Shown one piece after another: positions 1,874 through 15,897 of a stretch of 40,800 bases of DNA. Origin of the DNA: a virus (Duplodnaviria; Heunggongvirae; Uroviricota; Caudoviricetes). Position 1 is the stretch's first letter; the number at the start of each line of letters is the position of its first letter. The stretch is taken from the IMG/VR virus record IMGVR_UViG_2571042621_000026; one strand, 5' to 3'. The position numbers were made by a program, and so were the translations under genes. Below the pieces are notes generated by a model, which worked only from the letters and a program-made list of their open reading frames with translations, made no database searches and was not told the origin of the DNA.

Positions 1874-2070
1874 TACTGGCTGCGACATTTTTGAATAAAA
1901 GCGTCGACATTTCGGCGCTCATAACGAACTACTTTTGCACTGAAACGAATTGGTGCCAGGATAGCCCGATGACGATGCTTAATATTCCACTCACATAGCG
2001 TTTTCTGTGTAATACCTAACTTTTGGCATACTTCATCCGGGGTGAGTAAATCGTCGGGTTTCTCGCTCAT
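1870..2070 (-). CDS. AlpA-family excisionase / prophage transcriptional regulator
   Basis: 66-aa ORF with an HTH-like segment (LTPDEVCQKLGITQKTL). Its ATG overlaps the stop of the upstream helicase gene (ATGA), and it converges on int. Confidence 0.65.
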   Translation of the reverse strand: MSEKPDDLLTPDEVCQKLGITQKTLCEWNIKHRHRAILAPIRFSAKVVRYERRNVDAFIQKCRSQY

Positions 2071-3458
2071 GCTATACCTCTCTTTTTCATGGCATCGAGC
2101 AGGATGTCCTGCACTGTTCGTTTTGAGTTGCGCCGCTCCATCACCATTTCGTCCATAGTGTCGGCAGCAATAATGTGGTGAATAAATACCGGACGATTGT
2201 GTCCGGCCTGTATCTGTCTGGTTGGGCCGATACGTTCAATAATTTGCTGATATTGCTCCAGGTCCCACCAGTGTGAGAAAAATACCAGTATATTTCCGCC
2301 GTCCTGCATGTTCAGACCGTGGCCCGCGCTGGCTGGGTGTGCAAAGAGAACAGGAATCTTTCCGGAATTCCAGTCACGTAGTGTCTGTGGATCCTGGTCG
2401 AGGTGACGACCGCGAGGAAATGCTTTAAGCAAGCGTTCAAGATCGTGTTTCCAGTGATAAGCAACCAGCACAGGTGCGCCAGCTGCTTCGGTCAGTATGC
2501 TGTCCAGCGCCTGTAGTTTGGTGTCATGCAGTTCTGACCAACTTCCGGTGTCATCTGTGTATACTGCGCCGCTGGCGATTTGCAGACACTTCAGTGTCTT
2601 TGCCGCGGCGTTCGGTGCTTCGATGCCTTCGCCATTCAGCTCGAGGTACATTTCCTTTTCCATTTCACGATACTGCTGACGGGCCTTCGGCGGCATATCC
2701 ACGCGGATTACGTTATGGATGGGGTCTTTGATATCGAACCAGTCGGCCGCATCCAGCGAGAGGGTCACATCGGCTAACGCTCGCTGTATTTCACCCTGTG
2801 AGTGAGCAAAAGGCTCCAGTTTGGTCCAGCTCTGCCCCGGAAACTGTATCGATTTGAACCAGCGTGAGGTAAACGCGCCGTAAGTGCGCCCGAGACGTTG
2901 CCCCTGGTCCACAAACCACGATTGTCCCCACAAATCTACCAGGCCGTTCGGTGCTGGCGTACCGGTGAGATTTATCCAGCGCCGGACATACTTGTGCGCC
3001 ACTTTGCCCAGCGCCGCCGCGCGCTTACCACCACCTCGCAGCCGGAAGGATTTTAGCCGGGTGCTTTCATCTGGAATGACAGTACCGAACGGCCATCGTT
3101 CTCCCAATTCTTCAACCAGCCAGACAAGGTTATCGTAGTTGATTGTGAACACGCTCGCGTTGCTGTTCGCCAGCGCTGTAGAGCGCGCTTTGGCGTTACC
3201 GATGATCGGCTGTACCTCAATATTACGCAGATGCCCCCATTTAACAGCTTCATCAGGCCAAGTGCTTGCTGCAACGCGTAGCGGCGCGAGGACCAGCGCG
3301 GGGCGTGTTTCTGCTCCAGCCATGAAAAGATCTTCCAGCGTGGTGAGTGTCGCTACGGTTTTACCCATCCCCATCCCTGCCCAGATGTTGCCGCGCAGGG
3401 GCTCGATTTGATGATTGATGATGAGATCTTGGTAGGGACGTGGTTTAAAAGTTATCAT
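2067..3458 (-). CDS. SNF2/DEAD-like superfamily II helicase (phage replication)
   Basis: 463 aa with Walker A (GMGKT) and a DExx box (VIPDESTRLKS), plus a C-terminal helicase domain. ATG at 3456-3458. Confidence 0.75.
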   Translation of the reverse strand: MITFKPRPYQDLIINHQIEPLRGNIWAGMGMGKTVATLTTLEDLFMAGAETRPALVLAPLRVAASTWPDEAVKWGHLRNIEVQPIIGNAKARSTALANSNASVFTINYDNLVWLVEELGERWPFGTVIPDESTRLKSFRLRGGGKRAAALGKVAHKYVRRWINLTGTPAPNGLVDLWGQSWFVDQGQRLGRTYGAFTSRWFKSIQFPGQSWTKLEPFAHSQGEIQRALADVTLSLDAADWFDIKDPIHNVIRVDMPPKARQQYREMEKEMYLELNGEGIEAPNAAAKTLKCLQIASGAVYTDDTGSWSELHDTKLQALDSILTEAAGAPVLVAYHWKHDLERLLKAFPRGRHLDQDPQTLRDWNSGKIPVLFAHPASAGHGLNMQDGGNILVFFSHWWDLEQYQQIIERIGPTRQIQAGHNRPVFIHHIIAADTMDEMVMERRNSKRTVQDILLDAMKKRGIA

Positions 3459-3481
3459 GAAGAAAATCCCTGATTAGAAAG

Positions 3482-4084
3482 GTGCTCTTGAACATCATGA
3501 ATGTAAAAGATTTATCAATTACAACGGTTCTCTTGGCCGCCCTTTATTTTATGGCTTTTTCTTTTTACAAAGGGTACAGCTCATTTTATGGATTCCCTGT
3601 AAGTTTTATTTCTATTGGGATTGAGGAAATAGTTAAATTTTCTGTTATTGCATTAGGACTTTTGTGCACCTTAGTCGCTTTGCTGCATATTGATACTGAA
3701 GAGAAGAATATTCCATGGTGGGTGTATTTATTTTTCTTCATTTTGGCCTCTTTGCTTTCATACTGGACAATGTATTTATATGGCGGTAGCTCATACCTTT
3801 ATGAAAAATCCATAAGGGATGTGGCTACCCAAGCAATACTGTTGGGATTTATTAGCCCTATCAGTGTCAGGGCAGTATCTGTTTTTATTAGGAATGAATT
3901 TAGAATAAAAAACAAAACTCATGGGGTTATGCTTTTTATATCTATAGCAATGCTTCCTTCAGTCCTTGGGTGGGCATGGGCATACTTATCAGATGAGCCT
4001 CTTTTTTATTCTAAAAAATATGATGCTTATATTATCGAAAGCTATAACGGAAAATTTGTCTTGGGGAACTGTAAAAAAAAATAG
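3482..4084 (+). CDS. Hypothetical polytopic membrane protein (moron, opposite strand to the operon)
   Basis: 200-aa ORF with about 5 hydrophobic helices and a lysine-rich C-terminus. Low GC by eye. It runs against the flanking minus-strand genes. The start is GTG at 3482 or ATG at 3497. Confidence 0.5.
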   Translation: MLLNIMNVKDLSITTVLLAALYFMAFSFYKGYSSFYGFPVSFISIGIEEIVKFSVIALGLLCTLVALLHIDTEEKNIPWWVYLFFFILASLLSYWTMYLYGGSSYLYEKSIRDVATQAILLGFISPISVRAVSVFIRNEFRIKNKTHGVMLFISIAMLPSVLGWAWAYLSDEPLFYSKKYDAYIIESYNGKFVLGNCKKK

Positions 4085-4213
4085 CTCTGAATTTATGAGT
4101 GTCGAAGGAATTGAGGGGAAATTAATTCCTGTAAGCATAAAAGAAACACAACAACTAAAAGTATGTTTTTTAAAAGCTTCTAAGCTCAAGAAAAATCGCT
4201 CAGAATGATTGTC

Positions 4214-4483
4214 TCACAATATCCCCTCTAAATTTTTGCTATCCAGTACTACCACGGTAAAGCCTAGCTTTCGCAGACGTTCATGCTCGCGCAACTGGTC
4301 AGGCCGTGGTGGCTTGCCGGGAGATTTACATTCAACGAAAACGAGACGGCCGCCGGGTAGCAGAACAATGCGATCTGGTACCGAGCGGCGACCAGGTGAT
4401 ATGAACTTAAAGGCGACCCCACCAGCCTTTTTCACTTCGGCGACGAGATGCTTCTCGATTAGGTTTTCACGTTCATAGGACAT
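4214..4483 (-). CDS. VRR-NUC domain nuclease
   Basis: About 89 aa with a PD-(D/E)XK-like core (GGRLVFVECKSPGKPPRPDQL). The ATG at 4483 is chosen; the ORF could extend to the ATG at 4510. Confidence 0.6.
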   Translation of the reverse strand: MSYERENLIEKHLVAEVKKAGGVAFKFISPGRRSVPDRIVLLPGGRLVFVECKSPGKPPRPDQLREHERLRKLGFTVVVLDSKNLEGIL

Positions 4484-4772
4484 CTGAATCCCACTCTTCA
4501 AAAAGCACATTCAATTCCAGTTTCTCTGCCAACGCGTTTTCTGCACGTGCGCCGGCAGAGTACTCCCACTCTTTGAGCATATAAATCGTATCGGCACAGC
4601 GAAGCATTGCGAGGCAGATGTCCATGTACTGAGCCTGTGTCAAACTATTGGGTAAAGTTGCGGGGTTAAGCACAACATATCCCTTGTCCGTTAGCCTCTT
4701 TGCTGCGGAATGAAAGGCCGGGCGGTTAAATTGCTCGTAACCGCTCATTGGCCCGGCAACGTAAACGATCAT
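4473..4772 (-). CDS. DUF4406-like protein (nucleoside 2-deoxyribosyltransferase-like fold)
   Basis: 99 aa with the N-terminal VYVAGPMSG motif characteristic of this family. ATGA overlap with the upstream gene. Confidence 0.5.
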   Translation of the reverse strand: MIVYVAGPMSGYEQFNRPAFHSAAKRLTDKGYVVLNPATLPNSLTQAQYMDICLAMLRCADTIYMLKEWEYSAGARAENALAEKLELNVLFEEWDSDVL

Positions 4773-4984
4773 TCTTCGACCGCCTTACGCTTTTCACGCA
4801 TATTCTGCATCAGGCAAAAATCAGATCTGCGTTCACTCCATTCCTGATTCAGTTCGTGATGTGATTCGCGGTTGGCTTTTGCCCAGACCTCCGCTGCCCG
4901 GTCATATTCGCCGGATTGTTCAAGTCGCAAAGCTTCCCTTGCAGCCCTGTAATAAAGTGGATTGTCCCGGTATTTAAATGACAT
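4769..4984 (-). CDS. Small hypothetical protein (possibly an ANR-like regulator)
   Basis: 71-aa ORF packed between the polymerase and the DUF4406 gene with overlapping start/stop. No recognisable catalytic motif. Confidence 0.4.
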   Translation of the reverse strand: MSFKYRDNPLYYRAAREALRLEQSGEYDRAAEVWAKANRESHHELNQEWSERRSDFCLMQNMREKRKAVEE

Positions 4985-4989
4985 AGGAG

Positions 4990-7053
4990 TTAATCCTTAC
5001 GGTAGTGGTACGCCTCAAAACCGCCAGCGTTCAGTGGGATATCGGGCGCCCATTCGGGGTTAGTGGAGAGAAGTGCGGAAAGCGCTTTATCGTTGAAATC
5101 TTCTGTGTCAGGTGCTTCGGTGATCACCTCGTCGTGTACCGTCAGCACAATGCTGTAACCGGCATCTTCGATAAGCGGCATGTTTCCGGCCAGAATGTCG
5201 CGGGCGGCCGCCTGGGTGATGTTCTCCACCAGCTTTCCGCCGTAGGTTTTGAGTCGTTGCCATTTACGCGAATAAGAGTTAACCCCCATGTAGGTGATAT
5301 TCCCTTTTTCGATAACCGGAGACGGGTAGCATACAGCGCGTCCGGATGGTAGCTGTATGCGCAGCCACGCGCCATCGCGGCGGATTTTAAGATAACCGCA
5401 ATACAATGTTTTTTGCGGTGTGGCGATTGCAGTGCGGACGGTGCGCTCCAGTTCGTACCAGAAATCACAGGTCGCGGGATGCGCCCGGCGCCAGAGACGT
5501 TTAAGTGAGTCGCAGGCGATAAATACCCGTTCAGAAAGCCCGTAGGTTGACTTGCGTTTAACCGATTCGTCGTACCAGCTTTTCGCCTCGCGGATAACAT
5601 CGCGGGGAATGTTTGGTAGTGCGGCGTTCGCCAGCTCGTCGAGATCGAGACCGTAAACCAGTGCAAAAGTGATGAAGGCCGACACACCACCACCATAACC
5701 CAGACCGAGTTCCATGACTTTACCGATCTGACGCATGTGTTTATCAACATCATCTGGTGCAATATCGAAAGCTTTTGCATACGCCAGTTTATATAAGTCC
5801 GGACCCGTTCCGGCGTCGTACTCTCTGAATGCATTCAGTTTCCATTCTTCTCCTGCCAGCCATGCCAGCATACGGCCTTCAATGTTCGACAAGTCACTTA
5901 CCACCAGTTTTTTGCCTGTTGGCGCGATAATGCAGCCACGTAACGCTGAACTGGTTAGTTCCATGATATTGTCAAACAGCAGGTCTGCACATCCGGCTTT
6001 CAGTGCTTCGATGCCTTCGTCTATTTGTTCCTGTTTTAGTGAAGGGCGGGGAAGATTCTGGGGCTGGAATAGCCGTCCGGCCCAACGACCGGTACGTGAC
6101 GCCCCGCAGAACTGTAGCGTACCGCGTAAGCGCCCGTCGTGGCTTACGCCTTTCATCAGTGCCTTGTATTTACTGGTGCTGGTAGTACTGGCCTGCAGTC
6201 GGATAGCCAGCAGTTCTTTCACGGCAGATGGTAAATCGGGGTCGGCAATACGACGTTCCAGAGTACTGCGTTGCATGTCTGGTAGCTCCACACCGTAGGA
6301 TTCAACAATGTGCTTAATCAACGCGTCTCGTTGTGTGGCTGCCTGCACTTCGCCATCAGTCATTTCCTGTGTACGCTTTGCTAGGCGCTTTTGTTCCTGG
6401 TCTACCGCTTCGATCGCAGCGCGTGCGAGTTGCATGTCCATGCAGACGCCCCGGTCATTGATCTGCTGATCACGATGCCAGAGCGCCAGTTCTGTCCCCT
6501 GATAATTCCACTTCGGCAGACGTTTATAGACTTCGCGCATTGCCTCGATATCCAGTCCGGCGTAAGCAACAAAGCGCCGCCATTCTTCCGGGTGGGTTTT
6601 ACTGGTGGCCCGACGCAGTTTGCTGTTTTTCGGGCGTGGCTTACAGAACAGCTGGATCAGCGCTTTACCTTCTTTGTCCTTCGCTTTGTCTTGCGGGACG
6701 CCTAGTACTTCGCAGAGTTCCCCCAGAGACCCCGGGAGACCGTGCGCCAGCGCCTGCACCATCGTGTCGCGCCAACGTTCGACTGGCGGTGCCAGTCGCG
6801 GCATTGCATAACGCAGAACGGTGCGGTCGAAGTGAGAGTTATGGAAATAAAGCAGGGTTTCAGGGTCTGCGATTGCTTCGTATAAGCCGTGTGGAATACC
6901 ACCACCGGCAGTGATATCCCACACGTTTACTGGCCCGTCGTTGATAGCCCATGCGAAAAGCATCACTTCAACGCCTTCGGCATACGCATGGGTACCGTTG
7001 TTGATCGGAATGTCACAATAGGTTTCCAGGTCGCCCCATAGTATATTGGACAT
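4990..7053 (-). CDS. Family A DNA polymerase (Pol I-like, with 3'-5' exonuclease domain)
   Basis: 687 aa with an N-terminal exonuclease-like region and a C-terminal polymerase region. Strong SD (GAGGA) 8 nt upstream of the ATG at 7053. Confidence 0.85.
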
Positions 7054-7114
7054 AAAATATCCTCATATGGTATATGGTTAAATGCTAGATATCATGAATT
7101 AAAGGAGACAACTA

Positions 7115-7804
7115 ATGACTGTGGGTAATAAGAGACAGCCTAATGGATTACCTGAATATTATTGTCACCGTGGTAACGACATAAAAGATGCGATAGTTCG
7201 GGATTTTATTATTCAGCCTGTTGCACACCTGAAACTTATTACTGGACAAACTAAAACCAGTTATTCCGGTTATCCGTTAACCGATCAGTACTATTGTTTT
7301 TCATTTAAAAAACGCTCTGATGAAAATTGTACAGGGGCTTTTTTCTGTGGTAGAGATGTTGCAAAGGATTTCATTCGGCGTATCGGTTGTACAGAGCTGC
7401 CGTTATTTAATCCTATGAAATCGGATACCAGTGCAGCAATAGAACGTTCCGGTTCTGGCTCAGGTAGTTCTGGTATTACTGTCAAGCCAAATGCTGACAA
7501 AAAGCTATTTATAGACGCAGCTCGTCTGTTAATGACGCTGTGGGATTCAACAAGTAAGGGACAAACCCCACTGGCGTCGGTTCTTAATGAAGCAATTTCT
7601 GGTGGTATAGATAAACCTCCAGAAATTAGACATGTAGTGGCGGTTAATACAATGTTGGGTAACACAAAAAATACTTTAACTGGTTTGCTGGATAAAGCAA
7701 GAGCGAAGTATCCTGATGTGTTATTCAGAGATTTTGATTTCACGCCTCTTAACGAGATTGTAAAACGTTCAAAATCATATAATAAGCATCCCCCTTGTTA
7801 TTGA
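7115..7804 (+). CDS. Hypothetical protein, two-domain, Cys-rich N-terminus (moron)
   Basis: 229-aa ORF with a strong SD (AAAGGAGA) 6-7 nt upstream of the ATG. Low GC by eye. Opposite strand to the early operon. An internal GSGSGSSG linker separates two domains. Confidence 0.6.
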   Translation: MTVGNKRQPNGLPEYYCHRGNDIKDAIVRDFIIQPVAHLKLITGQTKTSYSGYPLTDQYYCFSFKKRSDENCTGAFFCGRDVAKDFIRRIGCTELPLFNPMKSDTSAAIERSGSGSGSSGITVKPNADKKLFIDAARLLMTLWDSTSKGQTPLASVLNEAISGGIDKPPEIRHVVAVNTMLGNTKNTLTGLLDKARAKYPDVLFRDFDFTPLNEIVKRSKSYNKHPPCY

Positions 7805-8439
7805 GTATCAGACACTGTATTGGTAGGAAGGCCTATCATTTCATTTAATGTCTCTCGATGTACTGCTGGTGCTAAAGGGACTGGCGGTGCGTCTGTTGGA
7901 AGCAGTTCTTTAGCTTCGGGCCATACATCCAGTAATCGTTTTACTGTCCGAACTTTATTTAGAGCCGCGCTGACATTCTGTATGATTTCGGTTTCATCAC
8001 TTTTAATTTGTGTGTAGAGAGCATCAAAGCTATAAAACTCCGTTACCAGAGGATCTTCGCCAAGTAGAGTAAATTCTGCAGGTGCTATTTTATTAATATG
8101 CTCGGGGGCTCCTGATTCATAACCTCTGTAGTTGCCATTGAAATAAATGTTTGCTCTGGCTCCAGCCAGATTGAGATATATGCAGCAATCTTTTCGAATT
8201 AAAGAACTATTGGTTTTTAATGCTTCGGGTAATTTTGATACCAGTGTTTCTATTTTTTTTATATTTTTTAATATTTCAGCGTCTTTCTCTACGCCCCCGA
8301 TAGCTGCAAGCCGAACACGTTCGGCCCATTCAACACGAGCAGCTCGTAGTGCTGATTTACGTTTGGGGATACCCGCTTTCTCAAGTGCGTTATTGATGAT
8401 TTGAGTTTTAAGGTGATTAGTTAATACGGGCTGTGACAT
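7798..8439 (-). CDS. Hypothetical protein (low-GC accessory gene)
   Basis: 213 aa from the ATG at 8439, which has GAGGGA upstream; the ORF could extend to 8469. Its 3' end overlaps the convergent 7115..7804 gene by 7 bp. Confidence 0.55.
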   Translation of the reverse strand: MSQPVLTNHLKTQIINNALEKAGIPKRKSALRAARVEWAERVRLAAIGGVEKDAEILKNIKKIETLVSKLPEALKTNSSLIRKDCCIYLNLAGARANIYFNGNYRGYESGAPEHINKIAPAEFTLLGEDPLVTEFYSFDALYTQIKSDETEIIQNVSAALNKVRTVKRLLDVWPEAKELLPTDAPPVPLAPAVHRETLNEMIGLPTNTVSDTQ

Positions 8440-8490
8440 TATTCTTTCCCTCATGAGATACCCCAGCACGTAGCTGGGGGATGAATATTT

Positions 8491-9039
8491 TTAAATCAGT
8501 GCTTCAGCATCAGCACCTTCGCTGATATCGTCGAAATCGTCAGCGCTTGCCACTCCGCCGCCAGCGAATGCATCGCCGTCTCGCAGGAACTGGACTCCGC
8601 CGAGTGAGGCATTAATGCGTTTACCGAAATTATTGTCCTGTGCCCAGATATCGATAACGGCGTTTACATAGCACCCTGCATAGGGACGTCCATCAGCCTG
8701 AATTAGTGGCGAACGATCGCGATCAAGAACAGCTGGGCGCGCTTTGTTAGCAGCGTTCAGGAAGAAATTGCCGGGAAAGCCTTCATACTCTGCTTTTTCA
8801 TCACCATCATGCAGGCACAGATTGAGTTTTTTCTCCAGCTGGTTATAAATGGACTCCCACTTCTCCCCCCATTTTTCCTTCGCTACCTGCTTCATAGCTT
8901 TACGGATTTCTTCCAGTTGTGGGTGTTTGGGAGACATTAAAAATACTGCGGAGAAACGCGGATCGCCTTCGCCGTTTACAGTTTTAGCTTCAAACAGAGA
9001 CGGGAAGGCCAGACGAACATTGTTCAGCTTCAGTTTCAT
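8491..9039 (-). CDS. DUF2815-like phage single-stranded DNA-binding protein
   Basis: 182 aa with an acidic C-terminal tail (DDFDDISEGADAE) typical of SSB partner-binding tails. AAGGA SD. Sits in the replication operon beside the polymerase. Confidence 0.6.
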   Translation of the reverse strand: MKLKLNNVRLAFPSLFEAKTVNGEGDPRFSAVFLMSPKHPQLEEIRKAMKQVAKEKWGEKWESIYNQLEKKLNLCLHDGDEKAEYEGFPGNFFLNAANKARPAVLDRDRSPLIQADGRPYAGCYVNAVIDIWAQDNNFGKRINASLGGVQFLRDGDAFAGGGVASADDFDDISEGADAEALI

Positions 9040-9054
9040 GGGGATTTCCTTAAA

Positions 9055-10356
9055 TCAGATGAGGTCTGCGGTTAGCGTATCGTCGGATACGTCGTCGAAA
9101 TCATTTACAGGGTTGATATTGAGTGCGGGGCGTGGGTCTGACTCGGGAACGACGGTGGGTTTACCATCAGCTCGTGTTATCAGTGCCTCGACTTTTGACC
9201 AACGGCGCGGACTGGCCTTTTTGATAAGTTTTTCGGCTTTTGTGGGACTAATAAGTTTAAAGTCGAATACTTCTTCAGTTTTGTACCTGAACTGGTCCTT
9301 CAGAAGGGCGCGAGCTGCCTCTTCGTCACTCCAGGCCCGGTTACCTTGTTTTTCTGTTACCAGTTTAAACCCCGGTACCGGATGTCCGGCATTGAGTTCA
9401 TTGTGAACCCGGTCCCGTACTGCCTTTAGCCAGGATTCAATAAAGTCGGCCTGGCTATAGATCTCTGCAAGCTGCTCAATGGTTAACAGAGGTACACGTG
9501 CGCTGGCATTGGTGATTATTTCGCTGACAGGCTTTGTCAGATCTTCAAAATCGCTGGCCGCTGTTTGTAAATGCTGCATTTTCTGGGCAGTGCAAATAGC
9601 TTTTGCTTTACAGAAGCGGCACTGTTTTTCTCCAGGTATGAAGTTTTCCAGAGGTAGTGTCTCAATGACTTCGCATTCAGCAATATTGAGAACAAGGATC
9701 GCACTGGTTGCGGCCTTCTGTGCCCGTTCACCGAAAGACTGAAGTTCCTGTACGGTTAACGACCATTCTGAAACGTGGTTGAGCCTTGGCTGGTGAATAA
9801 ATAATCTTACAGTCTCAAAGTCATACAGCATGCTGAATTGTTCGAGCGCACCCAGAGCATACAGTTGTAGTTGCTCATTTTGTTCTGCATCAATGCGGAC
9901 GCCTTTGCCATATTTCAGGTCGTGGATTTGTAATTCGCTACCAGCAATGATTATTCCGTCGGCAGTTCCGAAAGATTCTTCCACACCCGTTATATGTGAG
10001 AAATCAACACGTTGTTCAACCAATAGTTCATTATTCTGTGCAAGAGTCCAGACCGTATCAACATACCGGCCAACGGCTTCGACCATTTCATCATCCACCT
10101 GTGGGCCAGATGTATCATCAGGATTTTCGCGAAGGGGGTATGAGCCGAGAAACATAGAAACATTGCATCCGGCGTAGTGTTCCGGGTGGCTTTGCCTGTT
10201 TCGTAGAACTTTTTCAGCAAGCGCGTGCGCTGCAGTGCCCTCGATTGCAAAAGTTGTTTCTTTATCCGGTTGTGTGGCCTCCAGCGCCAGACTTCCTGGG
10301 CAGCGCATCCATCGATGCGCTGATGATGGAGAAAGTTGTGCATGAACGTCTGGCAT
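9055..10356 (-). CDS. DUF2800-like PD-(D/E)XK nuclease (Cas4/RecB-like)
   Basis: 433 aa. The N-terminal motif [15 protein letters not shown] is typical of DUF2800 nucleases that accompany phage Pol A modules, and there is a C-terminal Cys cluster. GGAGGG SD. Confidence 0.65.
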
Positions 10357-10358
10357 GA

Positions 10359-11261
10359 TTAACCCTCCAGTGCTTTTTCAGCCAGGGTGATTACTTCAGC
10401 GAGATTTTCATCCGTTACTTCACCAAGTTTCCTGGCTCCCTGTTTTTCCAGAATTGCAATAGCTTCTGCCCGGTAACCCCCTTTTGCTAACTGGAGGATC
10501 AACCCTTCAGCTTGTTTGCGTAGTGCCGCGAAATCAATTGTATGGTCATCTTTGGCGTCATTATTCTGGCTGGAATTTGCTGCGTCTCTGCGTGCAAATT
10601 CTTCCTGCAGCTGAAGGTACTCAACACGGTTGATCTCGATATGGCCTTTTTTCAGCATCTCGTTCAACTTGCGTAAGGTGTGGAGTTCACTGGCTGCTGT
10701 GCCGGATACATTTTTGACGTAAAACGGCCCCGTGCGTTCTCCATCCTTGTTACTGGCCTTTTTCGGCTTAACTTCATCACGCCCATCCGCAGGTGCATCA
10801 AGTAGCTGCTCGGCAAAAGCACGTCGCTCGCCGATGGTTGGCAGGTCGTCCCAGAACTTAAGGATGTTACGGGACAGGTCCAGGAGAGCAGGTTTAAGCA
10901 GCGCCCTGGCTCGTTTGACGCCCTGCAATGCGCTGTCGAGAGCATCAATCTGAACAACTCGTTTATCGCCTTCAGCATCACGGTAGGCAACAGCACGTTG
11001 CAGCATGTCTTCTGTGATAGGGGTGGCTACCGGGTAGAAACCAGCCAGTGCGATAACGTCGCTGAACTCCAGATCATCCAGTGTCATTGCCGCTGACATA
11101 TTTTCAGTTTCAGTTGCTGTATCCCGACATTCCTGCACTCGTGAAATCGTGTCAGGATGCATAACAATGCCTGATGCCATTGTGCGGATAAGACGTTCAA
11201 GCAGCGCATTATGTTGTGCCAGAAGTTGATTATTAAGTTCTAGACTGGTTTCTAAACTCAT
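10359..11261 (-). CDS. Hypothetical phage early protein
   Basis: 300-aa ORF, predicted helical, no recognisable motif. ATGA overlap with the upstream gene. Confidence 0.5.
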
Positions 11262-12040: not shown

Positions 12041-12664
12041 CTAACGTTTACGGCGGTAAATACGGTGTTCGATCATTACACCTATGATCTGTAAGTTCAT
12101 ATCTGCACTACGAAAAATAGGGTAATCAGGATTTAGGGGGATTAATTCAAAGTCGTCGATGCCGATTCCTAATGGACGGTATTTTTTAAATGTAGCTTCG
12201 TGACCGTCGTTTTTGGCGACAACAAACTCCCCTGGTGCAGGACATAGATCAGGATCGATGATAACAATGTCTCCTTCTTTAAACTCTGGTTGCATGCTGT
12301 CGCCATCGATACGTAATGCGAAGCATGTTTCTGGAATGTCAGAGTCTGCCAAAATATATTCAAATTCCCCTGTCAGATCTGTTATGTCTCTTGCTTCTGT
12401 AAGCTCTCCTGCCTGAACGTAACTTAATATAGGTATGCGTCTGGTACTTATCTCCGCGAGAGGCATAATATTTTTACCGTTCAGTAGCCAGTCTGGGCTA
12501 CATTTCAAGGCCTTAGCCAGATCCAGAAGATTGCGTGGCTTTCTGGTTCGTCCACTTTCGATGGATTCTATGGATTGTTGGCTAACCCCTGCAGAATTCG
12601 CTACTTCCACTTGAGTCATTCCTAATTCCAAACGACGTGCTTTAAAACGGGCTGCGAGAGACAT
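12041..12664 (-). CDS. CI-like repressor (HTH_XRE plus S24 LexA-like autopeptidase domain)
   Basis: N-terminal HTH (LGMTQVEVANSAGVSQQSIESIESG) and a C-terminal S24 domain with Ser (GDSM) and Lys. Start taken at the internal ATG at 12664, which has an AAGGA SD; the six-frame ORF extends to 12715. Confidence 0.85.
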   Translation of the reverse strand: MSLAARFKARRLELGMTQVEVANSAGVSQQSIESIESGRTRKPRNLLDLAKALKCSPDWLLNGKNIMPLAEISTRRIPILSYVQAGELTEARDITDLTGEFEYILADSDIPETCFALRIDGDSMQPEFKEGDIVIIDPDLCPAPGEFVVAKNDGHEATFKKYRPLGIGIDDFELIPLNPDYPIFRSADMNLQIIGVMIEHRIYRRKR

Positions 12665-12784
12665 GGGATTAGTCCTTCTGGGTTGTATTAATGTGTATCC
12701 CCACATTAAAAACAATTTTTGTTGTATTTGACAAACCTCGTTTGTTGTTGCTAAATACCACTAAAATTGTATGAGGTGAAAGCA
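12665..12784. promoter_or_regulatory. Divergent immunity promoter/operator region (OR-like) between the CI-like and Cro-like genes
   Basis: 120-bp AT-rich intergenic region containing the palindrome TTAATGTG-N6-CACATTAA (12688..12709) and further short dyads (TTGT..ACAA). Confidence 0.5.
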
Positions 12785-12997
12785 ATGACCTTAGCGACCC
12801 GAGTAAAAGAACGACGTAAAGAACTCAAAATGACGCAAGTTACGTTGGCTGAGCTCACAGGAGTGAGCCAGCAGGCAATAAACAGAATTGAAAGTGGTGT
12901 TATTGCTCGGCCACGTTATCTTCTTGAAATGTCTATAGCATTGGATTGCGACCCTAATTGGCTGTTGTATGGCTTACAAAACGATAAAAAGGCTTAA
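12785..12997 (+). CDS. Cro-like HTH_XRE regulator
   Basis: 70 aa from the ATG at 12785 with a GAGGTGA SD. HTH (LTGVSQQAINRIESG). Divergent from the repressor gene. Confidence 0.75.
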   Translation: MTLATRVKERRKELKMTQVTLAELTGVSQQAINRIESGVIARPRYLLEMSIALDCDPNWLLYGLQNDKKA

Positions 12998-13000
12998 CCC

Positions 13001-15193
13001 ATGTCCGATAGCAAACCATGGGGAGCTACGCCTGATGAGTGGTTTCATTTCGACCTGGTATTGGGGAGAACTGATCATCTTCTCCCAGTTGTATGTAACC
13101 CCAGTGCGACCATATCCCCTGATAGTAAACTGAAAGCGTTGGGTAAGACGCCGAGTCGCTATAACCGGGACCGCCAGGTCACCGGTATTGCTCAATGGAC
13201 CGGGCATGTTGTTACTGAGCATGATTTTGCCCGCTGGTCGAATGAACCGGATTATGGCATCTGCGTGCGTACAGGCCATGGCTGGCTGGCGCTGGACTGT
13301 GATAGCGAAGATGAAGACATTCAGGCAGATATTCGCAAAACGCTTGTGCAACTTCTGGGTGAGTTGCCGCCGCGACGCTGGCGAGCAAACAGTAATAAGT
13401 GTCTGTATCTGCTGGCCGTTGATGGTGATTTCCGTAAGCGTATCCATCGCCTGGCGGGGGATATGGGCATTATCGAGTTGCTGGCGAACGGGCAGCAGTT
13501 CGTTGCCTGCGGTACGCACAGCAGCGGCGCGCGTATTGAATGGGACGGCGGTTTGCCGGATGAACCTCCGGCTATTACTGGTGAGCAGCTTGAAACGCTG
13601 TGGCAGCGCCTGGCTGAACAACTCCCTGTGTCGGTAACCACCGAAGCGGGCAACACGAAGATGCGCGACCGATCAGCATTCACGCCCGGCGCGACGGATG
13701 ATACAGCTGAATATCTTGATGCCAATGGCTGGACGCTGCTGGATGGCGCAAATGGTGAACGATATATCCGCTGTCCGTTTGAAGACGGCCACAGTAGCGG
13801 GGGCGATCCAACAAGCACAGTTTATTTTCCTGCGGGAACCGCGGGCTTTGAGCAGGGGCATTTTAAATGCCTGCATGCCAGTTGTGCGCATCGTGATGAC
13901 GGAGATTTCCTTAATGCCATCGGGATCCGCAACGACGATTTCGAAGATCTGACCAGCACCGAAGTGGCGGAACCTTTACCGCTGCCTGCTTTCGAGCGTG
14001 ATAAATGGGGGCGTATCGAGGCAACCATCAGCAACGCAGCCAAAGCAGTAGTACGCCCTGATTTTGTGGACATCGATATTCGCTTTGACCAGTTCCGCGA
14101 CGAAATCATGTTTGCCCCTGCAGGATCCGGACAATGGCAGGCATTCACCGATGCGGATTATGCGCGCCTGCGCATCACGATGGAAAAGCGGGGATTTAAA
14201 CCTGTTGGTCGTGAACTTATTCGCGATGTGGTGTTACTTGCAGCCGATGAACAACCATTCGATTCAGCGATCACCTGGCTGAACGGACTGGAGTGGGATG
14301 GCGTGCCGCGCATCGAATGTTTCTACCATACGCACTTCGGTACCGCCGACACGCCTTATACCCGTGCGGTGTCTATGTACATGTGGACCGCGTTGGCGGG
14401 GCGAGTACTGGAGCCAGGCATCAAAGCGGATATGGTGCCTATCCTCGTTGGTCCGCAGGGCTGCGGTAAGTCTTCCGGAGTGGAGGCACTGAGCCCTGAT
14501 CCTGCGTTCTTTACTGAAATCTCTTTTGCCGAAAAAGACGATGATCTCGCTCGAAAAATGCGTGGTCGGCTGGTGGCAGAGATTGGTGAACTGCGCGGAC
14601 TTAATACCAAAGAGCTGGAGTCAATCAAAGCGTTTGTGACGCGTACTCACGAAAACTGGATCCCGAAATACCGGGAGTTCGCCACCCAGTTTCCTCGTCG
14701 CCTGGTGTTCGTTGGTACCACCAATGAGGACGAATTCCTTGCGGACAAGACTGGTAACCGTCGCTGGCTTCCCGTGGAAGTGTCGAAAGTCGACGTGAAA
14801 GCGATAAAAAGAGATCTCCTTTTACTTTGGGCTGAGGCTCGTGAGGTGTTTCAGCGTCTGGGGGGTATCCAGTTCCGTGAGGCTGAACAACTGGCAGCGA
14901 GTGTCCATGAACAGTACACCATCAAGGATGCTTGGCTTGAAACGGTAGAGAAATGGCTCGACACGCCAGACCTGATGACTAATGAACTTCCGCGAAATTG
15001 CGAATTTTTACGCGCAAGTGATGTTTTGCGTGATGCGATTGGGCTAAATCCTGACCGCATCGGAAAACGCGAAGAAATGCGAATTAGTAATGTTTTGCAA
15101 AATTGCGGGTATAAGCGTGCCCAAAGGCGAATTGGGGGGAAAATGACTCGAATTTTTGAGGCGGTGTCCCAACCTGTACCAACCTCAAAATAG
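13001..15193 (+). CDS. Primase/helicase (prim-pol N-terminal domain, zinc-binding region, P-loop NTPase; P4 alpha / VirE-like)
   Basis: 730 aa with an acidic LALDCDSEDED motif, a Cys/His cluster (CPFEDGH...CLHASCAH) and Walker A (GPQGCGKSS). Confidence 0.8.
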   Translation: MSDSKPWGATPDEWFHFDLVLGRTDHLLPVVCNPSATISPDSKLKALGKTPSRYNRDRQVTGIAQWTGHVVTEHDFARWSNEPDYGICVRTGHGWLALDCDSEDEDIQADIRKTLVQLLGELPPRRWRANSNKCLYLLAVDGDFRKRIHRLAGDMGIIELLANGQQFVACGTHSSGARIEWDGGLPDEPPAITGEQLETLWQRLAEQLPVSVTTEAGNTKMRDRSAFTPGATDDTAEYLDANGWTLLDGANGERYIRCPFEDGHSSGGDPTSTVYFPAGTAGFEQGHFKCLHASCAHRDDGDFLNAIGIRNDDFEDLTSTEVAEPLPLPAFERDKWGRIEATISNAAKAVVRPDFVDIDIRFDQFRDEIMFAPAGSGQWQAFTDADYARLRITMEKRGFKPVGRELIRDVVLLAADEQPFDSAITWLNGLEWDGVPRIECFYHTHFGTADTPYTRAVSMYMWTALAGRVLEPGIKADMVPILVGPQGCGKSSGVEALSPDPAFFTEISFAEKDDDLARKMRGRLVAEIGELRGLNTKELESIKAFVTRTHENWIPKYREFATQFPRRLVFVGTTNEDEFLADKTGNRRWLPVEVSKVDVKAIKRDLLLLWAEAREVFQRLGGIQFREAEQLAASVHEQYTIKDAWLETVEKWLDTPDLMTNELPRNCEFLRASDVLRDAIGLNPDRIGKREEMRISNVLQNCGYKRAQRRIGGKMTRIFEAVSQPVPTSK

Positions 15194-15421
15194 AGGTTGG
15201 TACATTTTAACTAATTGAATTTAAAGGCCAGTACCAACTGTACCATCTGTACCAACCTAATTACTAAGAACCCCATATATATATATAAGTCGCTTGGGGA
15301 AAAGGTTTGAAAAGAGCTGGTACAGGTGGGTACAGGTTGGTACAGGCCGAACAAGGAATTTTTTGCACATAACAGCGTGTAATAAGCGAATCGGAACTGC
15401 GTTATCCACACCCACGGATAA
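15175..15421. repeat. Iteron array, (TA)7 tract and DnaA-box-like sites: candidate replication origin
   Basis: Perfect inverted repeat TGTACCAACC-N10-GGTTGGTACA (15175..15204) spanning the primase stop. Three tandem GTACCAnCT units at 15231..15257. ATATATATATATAT at 15275..15288. Three tandem TGGTACAGG units in opposite orientation at 15317..15346. TTATCCACA at 15402..15410 and, inverted, CACGGATAA at 15413..15421. Confidence 0.6.
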
Positions 15422-15474
15422 ACAAACGTGGTTCTCAGAAAATTTTTTCGTAGCAAAACGTAGAGGTCAGAGCT

Positions 15475-15897
15475 ATGCGTAATATTCAACAGGTTTTAGA
15501 GCGCTGGGGTGGCTGGGCAGCGAGTGAAGGTGGTAGTGTCTACTTTCCTCCTGTTGCAGCAGGGTTTAAGAATCTGCTACCCGCGACGCAGTCTGGAAGG
15601 CTGAAATGCAGTGACAATGACGGTCTTATCATCAACTCCGCTATGAGCTGCCTGAAGAAAAAAGATCCGTATCTGTGCACGCTCCTTGAGTGGCATTACG
15701 TCCAGGCCATGCCCGTGCGGGCGATGGGTGAGAAGCTCGGCGTATCTCACACCCACGTTCTGAAGAGGCTTCAGGCGGCAGAGGGATTTATTGACGGTTG
15801 CTTAGCCATGCTGGATGTGGTGCTCGAAATGGATCAGTCGGTTCAGTCAAAGCCTCAGGCTATCAGGACTTTGCGTAGGAGCTGCTCGGCGGCATAA
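15475..15897 (+). CDS. Q-type late-gene antiterminator
   Basis: 140 aa. The N-terminal region (VLERWGGWAA..YFPP..AAGFK) and a central LEWHY motif resemble the small phage antitermination-Q family. AGAGGT SD. Positioned upstream of the lysis cassette. Confidence 0.65.
   Translation: MRNIQQVLERWGGWAASEGGSVYFPPVAAGFKNLLPATQSGRLKCSDNDGLIINSAMSCLKKKDPYLCTLLEWHYVQAMPVRAMGEKLGVSHTHVLKRLQAAEGFIDGCLAMLDVVLEMDQSVQSKPQAIRTLRRSCSAA

Follow-up and report, generated by a model that had tools for sequence, protein, structure and literature searches.

Origins of related replicons

The Rep proteins of the staphylococcal pathogenicity islands (SaPIs) are self-loading SF3 helicases, and their C-terminal winged helix binds 6–12 iterons immediately downstream of rep (PMC9371898). 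The SaPI origin has an AT-rich centre with at least two iterons per side in opposite orientation, and loading is believed to involve two hexamers, one for each side (PMC9371898). The pri-rep-ori region from the E. coli phage-inducible chromosomal island (PICI) EcCICFT073 has the same layout and drives plasmid replication (PMC6092414). Here we describe a candidate origin of this design in a stretch of viral DNA of 40,800 nucleotides (IMG/VR record IMGVR_UViG_2571042621_000026; the whole stretch is called the window below), which is a prophage of E. coli 97-3250 inserted beside yfhL. From comparison of sequences we estimate a probability of about 80% that this temperate prophage has its replication origin at positions 15166–15368. 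The interval immediately follows, and in part overlaps, the gene for the phage's proposed initiator, a 730-residue protein with a Prim-Pol domain, a VapE/SF3-type helicase and a predicted winged helix. The estimate is based on the conserved layout beside orthologous genes, the concerted change of iterons and wing, the winged-helix C-terminus and the homology to SaPI Rep.

As in SaPI1 (Rep1), SaPI5 (PriRep5), SaPIbov1 and EcCICFT073, the initiator would by analogy be a helicase of the self-loading type with a C-terminal winged helix for short iterons, and the origin lies immediately downstream of the rep open reading frame, with nine copies here against six to twelve. The AT-rich centre is again placed between opposed iteron sets, in this case three plus and three minus copies around 55 bp that include a 13-nt AT tract. 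Primase and helicase are fused, as in PriRep5, and the iteron sequence varies between elements in both groups. The carrier differs. It is a complete 40-kb temperate phage with PolA, an SSB-like protein, a nuclease and all virion genes, and it shares the replicon type without being a PICI. Unlike the 5–6 bp iterons of SaPI/PICI, those here are 9–10 bp. A third conserved cluster, in the order ++−, lies across the stop codon, and the centre has boxes GGGAAAGGTT and AATTTTTTGCA that are conserved across families with unrelated iterons; both features set the locus apart from SaPI/PICI.

The Sulfolobus plasmid pRN1 encodes ORF904, which contains Prim-Pol, SF3 and winged-helix domains, and a stem-loop of ~100 bp just downstream of the gene is necessary and sufficient in cis (PMC4234260). 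The putative origin of the Bordetella phage BIP-1/BPP-1 resembles this in its large stem-loop, and the loop of a further, small stem-loop contains the end of the phage's replication gene (PMC4234260). The authors of the pRN1 study found no iterons and proposed that the stem-loop is recognized as a structure (PMC4234260). The present locus shares with pRN1 and BIP-1 a single polypeptide of Prim-Pol, SF3-type helicase and winged helix, a small stem-loop at the stop codon (here a 12-bp hairpin) and a large one directly downstream (here a stem of ~28 bp and a loop of ~60 nt). As in BIP-1, the gene ends inside the small stem-loop's loop. Unlike those of pRN1, the stems here are built from tandem repeats of a protein-specific unit, and the helicase belongs to the VapE family, not to the D5_N/COG3378 type of pRN1 and BIP-1. 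The link suggests that the stems of pRN1 and BIP-1 may also be arrays of binding sites.

The alpha protein of the satellite phage P4 combines a primase, an SF3-type helicase and a C-terminal winged-helix origin-binding domain acting on short repeats in one polypeptide (PMC2777425, PMC4234260), and its primase is of the Toprim/DnaG (bacterial) type (PMC2777425). The protein of the present prophage is similar in having a primase and, after the SF3-type helicase, a predicted C-terminal winged helix in the same chain. Its primase, unlike that of alpha, is a Prim-Pol of the archaeo-eukaryotic primase (AEP) kind. The original prediction had called the enzyme P4-type, and this assignment does not stand; with a Prim-Pol/AEP N-terminus (PF09250), a VapE-type helicase (PF05272) and a predicted winged helix in one chain, the enzyme is analogous to P4 alpha and not P4-type. 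P4 also needs a second repeat region, crr, kilobases from its ori. No second, crr-like cluster of the motif is present in the window, and all copies lie within 180 bp.

The classical iteron origins have direct repeats of 17–22 bp with conserved and functional DnaA boxes. At P1 oriR, pSC101, RK2, F and lambda ori, initiators of the RepA/TrfA type or lambda O recruit the host DnaB. The locus resembles these origins in placing repeated initiator sites beside an AT-rich unwinding element. It departs from them in that the initiator would itself be the helicase and primase, in its 9–10 bp repeats in opposed arrays, and in the lack of a conserved DnaA box. No RepA/TrfA-type initiator gene was found in the early region.

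The design of the origin is thus already known from the SaPI/PICI rep-ori and from pRN1/BIP-1. What is new is the full temperate phage that carries it, not the kind of system, and the rep-ori design of SaPI/PICI would be extended from satellites to full phages. No published description of this origin was found for this phage group, searches on VapE, iterons and origins in phages included, in a literature coverage that is incomplete. Nothing on an origin was found in the ZF40 and phiTE literature.

Layout of the module and covariation with the proposed initiator

The features of the initiator gene and the module are as follows.

13001–15193, plus strand: gene for the 730-residue fused primase-helicase-initiator (domain searches, AlphaFold2 models)
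15110–15163, plus strand: codons of the wing beta-hairpin, residues 704–721 (DSSP of AlphaFold2 models)
15140–15163, plus strand: wing strand 2, KMTRIFEA, residues 714–721, proposed specificity segment
15166–15203, no strand assigned: upstream iteron cluster ++− over the stop codon (repeat search)
15166–15175, plus strand: copy 1 of the upstream cluster, GTCCCAACCT
15176–15185, plus strand: copy 2 of the upstream cluster, GTACCAACCT
15194–15203, minus strand: copy 3 of the upstream cluster, GTACCAACCT
15204–15230, no strand assigned: A/T-rich spacer ATTTTAACTAATTGAATTTAAAGGCCA, partly conserved as TTGAnnTTTAA
15231–15258, plus strand: left array of three head-to-tail iterons with a 9-nt period (repeat search)
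15231–15240, 15240–15249 and 15249–15258, plus strand: left-array copies GTACCAACTG, GTACCATCTG and GTACCAACCT
15259–15313, no strand assigned: central region of 55 bp, proposed unwinding element and conserved core
15314–15343, minus strand: right array of three iterons opposite to the left array, with a 10-nt period
15314–15323, 15324–15333 and 15334–15343, minus-strand reading: right-array copies GTACCAGCTC, GTACCCACCT and GTACCAACCT
15358–15368, plus strand: AATTTTTTGCA box, right edge of the conserved module
15402–15410 and 15413–15421, no strand assigned: DnaA-box-like pair, TTATCCACA and the inverted near-match CACGGATAA

The original prediction had at least eight copies of a motif in about 175 bp. 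The cluster is real and in its place, and the count rises to nine copies of a 10-bp unit (consensus GTACCAACCT) within 15166–15343 (178 bp), in the order ++− | +++ | −−−. They reach 28 nt ahead of the primase stop codon and 150 nt past it. The ninth, degenerate copy, GTCCCAACCT, was detected by the repeat finder and by the de novo 8-mer search described below. In this interval the 10-mer GTACCAACCT occurs four times exactly and twice with one mismatch, and the rest of the window has no exact copy. With one mismatch allowed, the core CTGTACCA has eight matches in 15174–15345, and a single exact copy is found elsewhere in the 40.8 kb. The 31 loose matches outside the cluster give a background of ~0.13 per 172 bp, for which the Poisson probability of eight is ~2e-12. 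The clearest notation for the unit is a variable part of 4 nt and then C(A/C)ACCT.

The predicted pair of opposed triples around a TA tract is present as described, at 15231–15258 and 15314–15343, and two lengths needed correction. The perfect inverted repeat across the primase stop codon, formed by copies 2 and 3, is 12 bp rather than 10 bp (15175–15186 and 15193–15204, with the TAG stop at 15191–15193 in the loop), and the alternating tract, ATATATATATATA at 15275–15287, is 13 nt rather than 14. In the centre the order is AACCCC, the AT tract, AGTCG and the box GGGGAAAAGGTT at 15296–15307, and the GC content drops to 0.33–0.38. The left and right arrays together form a long imperfect palindrome (stem ~28 bp, loop ~60 nt; single-stranded DNA fold z = −5.9). 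GC skew was excluded as evidence because its profile around the region mostly mirrors the orientation of the repeats. The earlier proposal of an iteron-type origin with an AT-rich unwinding element, read by the adjacent primase/helicase, is upheld as far as sequence comparison can carry it.

The spacer at 15204–15230 keeps its TTGAnnTTTAA core in many relatives. It also has a weak match, on the minus strand, to the consensus of integration host factor (IHF). With one mismatch allowed, WATCAANNNNTTR occurs at that position in ~51 of 120 unique regions. The exact consensus is found in 6 of 120, and one-mismatch matches are uninformative in A/T-rich DNA, so the IHF site was rejected and is given as a weak note.

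The RefSeq annotation of the 730-residue protein is VapE domain-containing protein. It consists of Prim-Pol (AEP, about residues 53–185), a Cys/His cluster (about 258–297), a VapE-type P-loop helicase (427–639) and a winged helix (about 644–721). The helicase matches Pfam PF05272 with E 2e-60 over residues 427–639. A scan restricted to the N-terminal part matches the Prim-Pol to PF09250 (E 2e-10, residues 53–185), a domain that is also among the precomputed assignments of relatives. A phmmer search of the PDB returned chain A of 7PDS, the SaPI1 Rep1–DNA complex (E 9.3e-34, residues 394–657), which is the only solved homologue by sequence. The protein therefore has an SF3/VapE-type helicase homologous to SaPI Rep, together with a C-terminal winged helix that is predicted. 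In the AlphaFold2 models (predicted local distance difference test score, pLDDT, 70 for the whole protein and 80 for the last 96 residues) the C-terminal domain has three helices and then a beta-hairpin; the conserved KREEMRISNVLQN is the third helix, and the variable KMTRIFEA is the second hairpin strand. DSSP assigns the strands to 704–711 and 714–721 in the whole-protein model, and to 70–77 and 80–87 in the 96-residue model.

The region is found by megablast in 140 of 5,426 complete E. coli genomes at 80–100% identity. The phage collection contains no close relative of it, and the matches there are YeP4-6, with 72% nucleotide identity over the primase, and matches to the Q gene. Loci for comparison came from species-representative genomes, from viral contigs and metagenomes, and from Yersinia phage YeP4, and in each the most repeated 8-mer around the primase stop was sought with no motif assumed. 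Of the loci with more than 70% identity, from E. coli, Enterobacter, Salmonella, Xenorhabdus, Yersinia phage YeP4 and others, 135 of 137 show seven or more copies with matching offsets relative to the primase stop, most commonly in a 3+3+3 pattern. The layout is also present in 22 of 32 distant loci (Gilliamella, Orbaceae, Burkholderiales) at ~50% protein identity. The ++− cluster keeps its offsets in the relatives, the inner copies are 67 nt apart from start to start in most Enterobacterales loci, and a TA tract of at least four repeats occurs in 99 of 120 unique regions.

While the layout stays, the iteron sequence switches between lineages in all copies together, among GTACCAAC, GGAACCAC, GTTACCAC, GTAACCAC, TAGACCAC, TAGACAAC, GTCCCAAC, GTCACCAC and others, and the centre between the arrays is conserved. 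Six loci read by eye have the same layout and a near-identical centre AACCCCATATATATATATAAGTCG...GGGAAAGGTTA with a differing unit, GTACCAAC here and GGAACCAC, GTTACCAC or TAGACCACC elsewhere. The boxes GGGAAAGGTT (15296–15307, ~10 nt right of the TA tract) and AATTTTTTGCA (15358–15368) are kept from E. coli to Burkholderiales despite unrelated iterons, and both stand at matching positions in L015, L023, L032 and L164. The offset of AATTTTTTGCA from the last iteron is similar in E. coli, Xenorhabdus/Photorhabdus, YeP4 and Burkholderiales loci. One may speculate that a conserved portion of the enzyme reads the two boxes as a signal for priming or loading.

Two of the close loci break the pattern: L157 has lost the core between two inverted copies by deletion, and L022 has a decayed gene. 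In L157, the metagenome contig OGEW01000088.1, the left triple, the TA centre and the right triple are all gone ~0–40 nt past the primase stop, leaving the junction TAGACCACCTCGGCGTTTTAGGTGGTCTAGCAATGAAC, and the primase tail is identical to that of TAGACCACC-type phages. A deletion between two copies of equal orientation, the one at the stop codon and the last of the right-hand array, fits this, and the prophage is probably replication-defective. In L022, from Candidatus Sodalis endolongispinus (~5046–5400), homology in the primase frame breaks off near residue 688, with no iterons beyond it; this looks like a decayed prophage in an endosymbiont genome.

Arrays expanded to 12–13 copies were seen in Photorhabdus caribbeanensis (L029) and in the viral contigs L107 and L109, with extra direct runs at the stop or copies further downstream. 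In the right-hand triple the middle copy is consistently the most degenerate, GTACCCACCT here (15324–15333) and GGTGGGGGCAGG in GGAACCAC-type loci (L002 and L005, ~3227–3238). This site, one of the nine, may be under a weaker or different constraint.

The E. coli primases that go with different iterons are 92–98% identical, and their divergence is confined to the last ~25 residues. The repeat type tracks a seven-residue segment of wing strand 2, G-[KR]-x-x-x-[VIAL]-[WFY], in 24 variants at 135 loci with zero discordance. Phenylalanine or tyrosine at the last position goes with CAACCT in 49 loci, and tryptophan goes with CCACCT in 86 loci. Four variable parts are found with both forms:

GTAC: MTRIF with CAACCT, MTRIW with CCACCT
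GTCC: KMRIF with CAACCT, KQRIW with CCACCT
TAGA: QQRVF with CAACCT, QIRVW with CCACCT
GTAA: SQRVY with CAACCT, VQRVW with CCACCT

The residue after GK relates to the variable part as follows: M or V with GTAC or GTAA, K with GGAA or GTCC, Q with TAGA, and L with GTTA. The wing codons overlap no iteron. The match of iteron specificity to the cognate initiator is here one of natural covariation only.

Tentatively, at a little less than even odds, we propose a recognition code in which wing strand 2, and not the recognition helix, would set origin specificity. The DNA-facing residues would be 715, 717 and 719. Of these, the aromatic 719 would determine a single base (A with F/Y, C with W), and 715 would determine the 4-nt variable half. 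More than 12 mutually orthogonal origin–initiator pairs may then circulate in one prophage family, probably selected against cross-talk between co-resident prophages or hijacking by satellites, and specificity might be re-engineered by one or two substitutions. If the code is true, F719W should move the preference from CAACCT to CCACCT. The origin reading itself predicts that the C-terminal domain (residues ~640–730) or the full protein prefers GTACCAACCT arrays over GGAACCACCT arrays. The wing–iteron correspondence provides a prediction set for how winged-helix initiators read DNA and a panel of candidate orthogonal origin–initiator pairs.

Proposed initiation and alternative readings

Initiation may proceed in the following way. 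The gene order suggests that a rightward cro-primase-Q transcript would supply the protein after induction, and hexamers would form as for the homologous SaPI1 Rep. The natural covariation suggests that the C-terminal winged helix would bind the 9–10-bp iterons; the conserved recognition helix probably reads the constant C(A/C)ACCT, and wing strand 2 (G-K-M-T-R-I-F here) would read the 4-nt variable part and the A/C position. The two opposed three-site arrays would seat two complexes flanking the 55-bp centre, in which the (TA)6 tract would melt. By analogy with the SaPI/PICI Rep-ori and pRN1 ORF904, the helicase would then load itself, Prim-Pol would prime and the phage family-A DNA polymerase would extend, probably in both directions. 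The extra ++− cluster over the stop codon may be an accessory binding site.

Several points weigh against this reading. The scheme leaves the roles of the ++− cluster and of the boxes GGGAAAGGTT and AATTTTTTGCA unexplained. The first inverted repeat also fits the pattern of an intrinsic terminator. The wing codons are 10–200 bp from the repeats, and co-inheritance of one recombination block could contribute to the association between them.

The last point leads to an alternative in which the region is an origin, yet the iterons are bound by another protein, a host factor or another phage product, and the primase tail covaries by linkage alone. The wing codons adjoin the iterons and would be inherited with them whatever their function. 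Nevertheless, the pairing of F/Y with A and of W with C recurs in four independent backgrounds and across genera. The 45-bp centre conserved within the Enterobacterales is a substrate for recombination between left and right arrays, yet no left/right chimera was found among the 137 close loci, of which the two without a matched array are the deletion and the decayed gene. Neither the recurrent residue–base pairing nor the lack of chimeras is what linkage alone predicts. The variable residues are in the wing that is predicted to bind DNA, and the homologous SaPI Reps bind their iterons via the same domain (PMC9371898). We therefore regard binding by another protein as improbable.

A function mainly in transcription is about equally improbable. 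Here the stop-codon hairpin with its T-run would act as an intrinsic terminator to hold back expression of Q and the late genes, and the large palindrome would be a second RNA structure. The scan of the window did return one terminator-like site, with a 12-bp stem, a 6-nt loop and then TTTTAAC, and the small stem-loop after the pRN1 stop codon was read as a terminator (PMC4234260). The T-run, however, is missing in relatives of the GGAACCAC type (L002) and the TAGACCAC type (L006), which keep the hairpin because it is built from iterons, and the terminator was rejected as the main function on this ground. An RNA structure also leaves unexplained why the same 10-mer occurs in direct arrays and covaries with residues of a protein, and no Rfam family matches the region. 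A terminator role in this phage is possible, at most as a local and secondary side effect. No sigma-70 promoter-like site was found by the scan inside the region.

A host-DnaA-dependent origin, in which TTATCCACA and CACGGATAA would be functional DnaA boxes that aid opening, is very unlikely. Both sites are present where the original prediction had placed them; TTATCCACA matches the consensus box perfectly, no other exact TTATNCACA occurs in the 40.8 kb, and the closest E. coli relatives conserve it. With ~0.3 exact 9-mers expected by chance in the window, though, a single hit is weak. Of the 120 unique origin regions, 20 contain an exact TTATNCACA. In 27 homologous right flanks the box changes to TTATTCACG, TTACCCACG or TTAACCACG and GGATAA changes to GGAGAG while the neighbouring bases are fixed, and no compensatory change preserves the palindrome. 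The box is 60 bp beyond the iteron arrays, and loci with another downstream gene in place of this Q lack it (L006–L009). With so few exact boxes and drifting positions, DnaA boxes were rejected as a conserved component of the origin, and the suggested input of host DnaA is not supported. From these comparisons the DnaA-like pair probably lies outside the origin module. Homology to the Q genes of unrelated prophages begins only at ~15449 (15366–15448 compared with hits H30–H37 and H4–H7); therefore the 80 bp with the DnaA-like box are a separate mosaic segment, specific to the Q-linked variants of the group.

The original prediction had itself allowed that the repeats might be operators of another regulator. 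Candidates would be the CI-like S24 repressor, Cro or another transcription factor controlling Q. The repeats do sit in the early rightward operon just upstream of Q, and immunity type and iteron type covaried in the first six loci examined, but this reading is refuted for Cro and CI and as a whole is highly improbable: identical Cro-like proteins occur with two to five iteron types (nine cases), as many as 15 different Cro sequences accompany each common iteron type, the cI–cro intergenic region has its own unrelated inverted repeat of 23 nt and no iteron-like site, and the module stays with the primase where other genes stand in place of Q. The decoupling of Cro identity from repeat type and the unrelated repeat between cI and cro together exclude the immunity regulators.

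The prophage and its neighbouring genes

The origin reading places the origin of a widespread and unstudied group of enterobacterial temperate phages that encode their own Prim-Pol helicase and DNA polymerase. Besides the 140 E. coli genomes, the group is found in Enterobacter, Salmonella, Klebsiella, Citrobacter, Xenorhabdus, Yersinia and Gilliamella. The window contains a full prophage that has genes for terminase, portal, capsid, tail and baseplate as well as a DNA polymerase of its own. The genes around the initiator gene are listed below.

12041–12715, minus strand: CI-like S24/helix-turn-helix repressor
12767–12997, plus strand: Cro-like helix-turn-helix protein
15475–15897, plus strand: antiterminator Q, the downstream neighbour, outside the origin (PF06530, E 5e-42)

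The gap between the primase gene and Q is 281 bp, and the origin module accompanies the primase even at loci where other genes replace Q.

The intergenic region between the cI-like and cro-like genes (12712–12770) contains a 23-nt imperfect inverted repeat, ACAATTTTTGTTGTATTTGACAA / TTGCTAAATACCACTAAAATTGT, which is unrelated to the iterons. This is probably the immunity operator region.

A leftward early operon on the minus strand at ~2070–11260 (7468–16662 in L001) encodes a family-A DNA polymerase, DUF2800 and DUF2815 proteins and an SNF2-like DEAD/DEAH helicase. The phage carries much of its own replication machinery, because this operon encodes polymerase, helicase and nuclease genes, and for a temperate, myovirus-like prophage regulated by Q this is a nearly complete set of phage replication genes. 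The same operon also contains genes for VRR-NUC and DUF4406 proteins and for a putative nucleotide-modification protein of the Nmad5 family.

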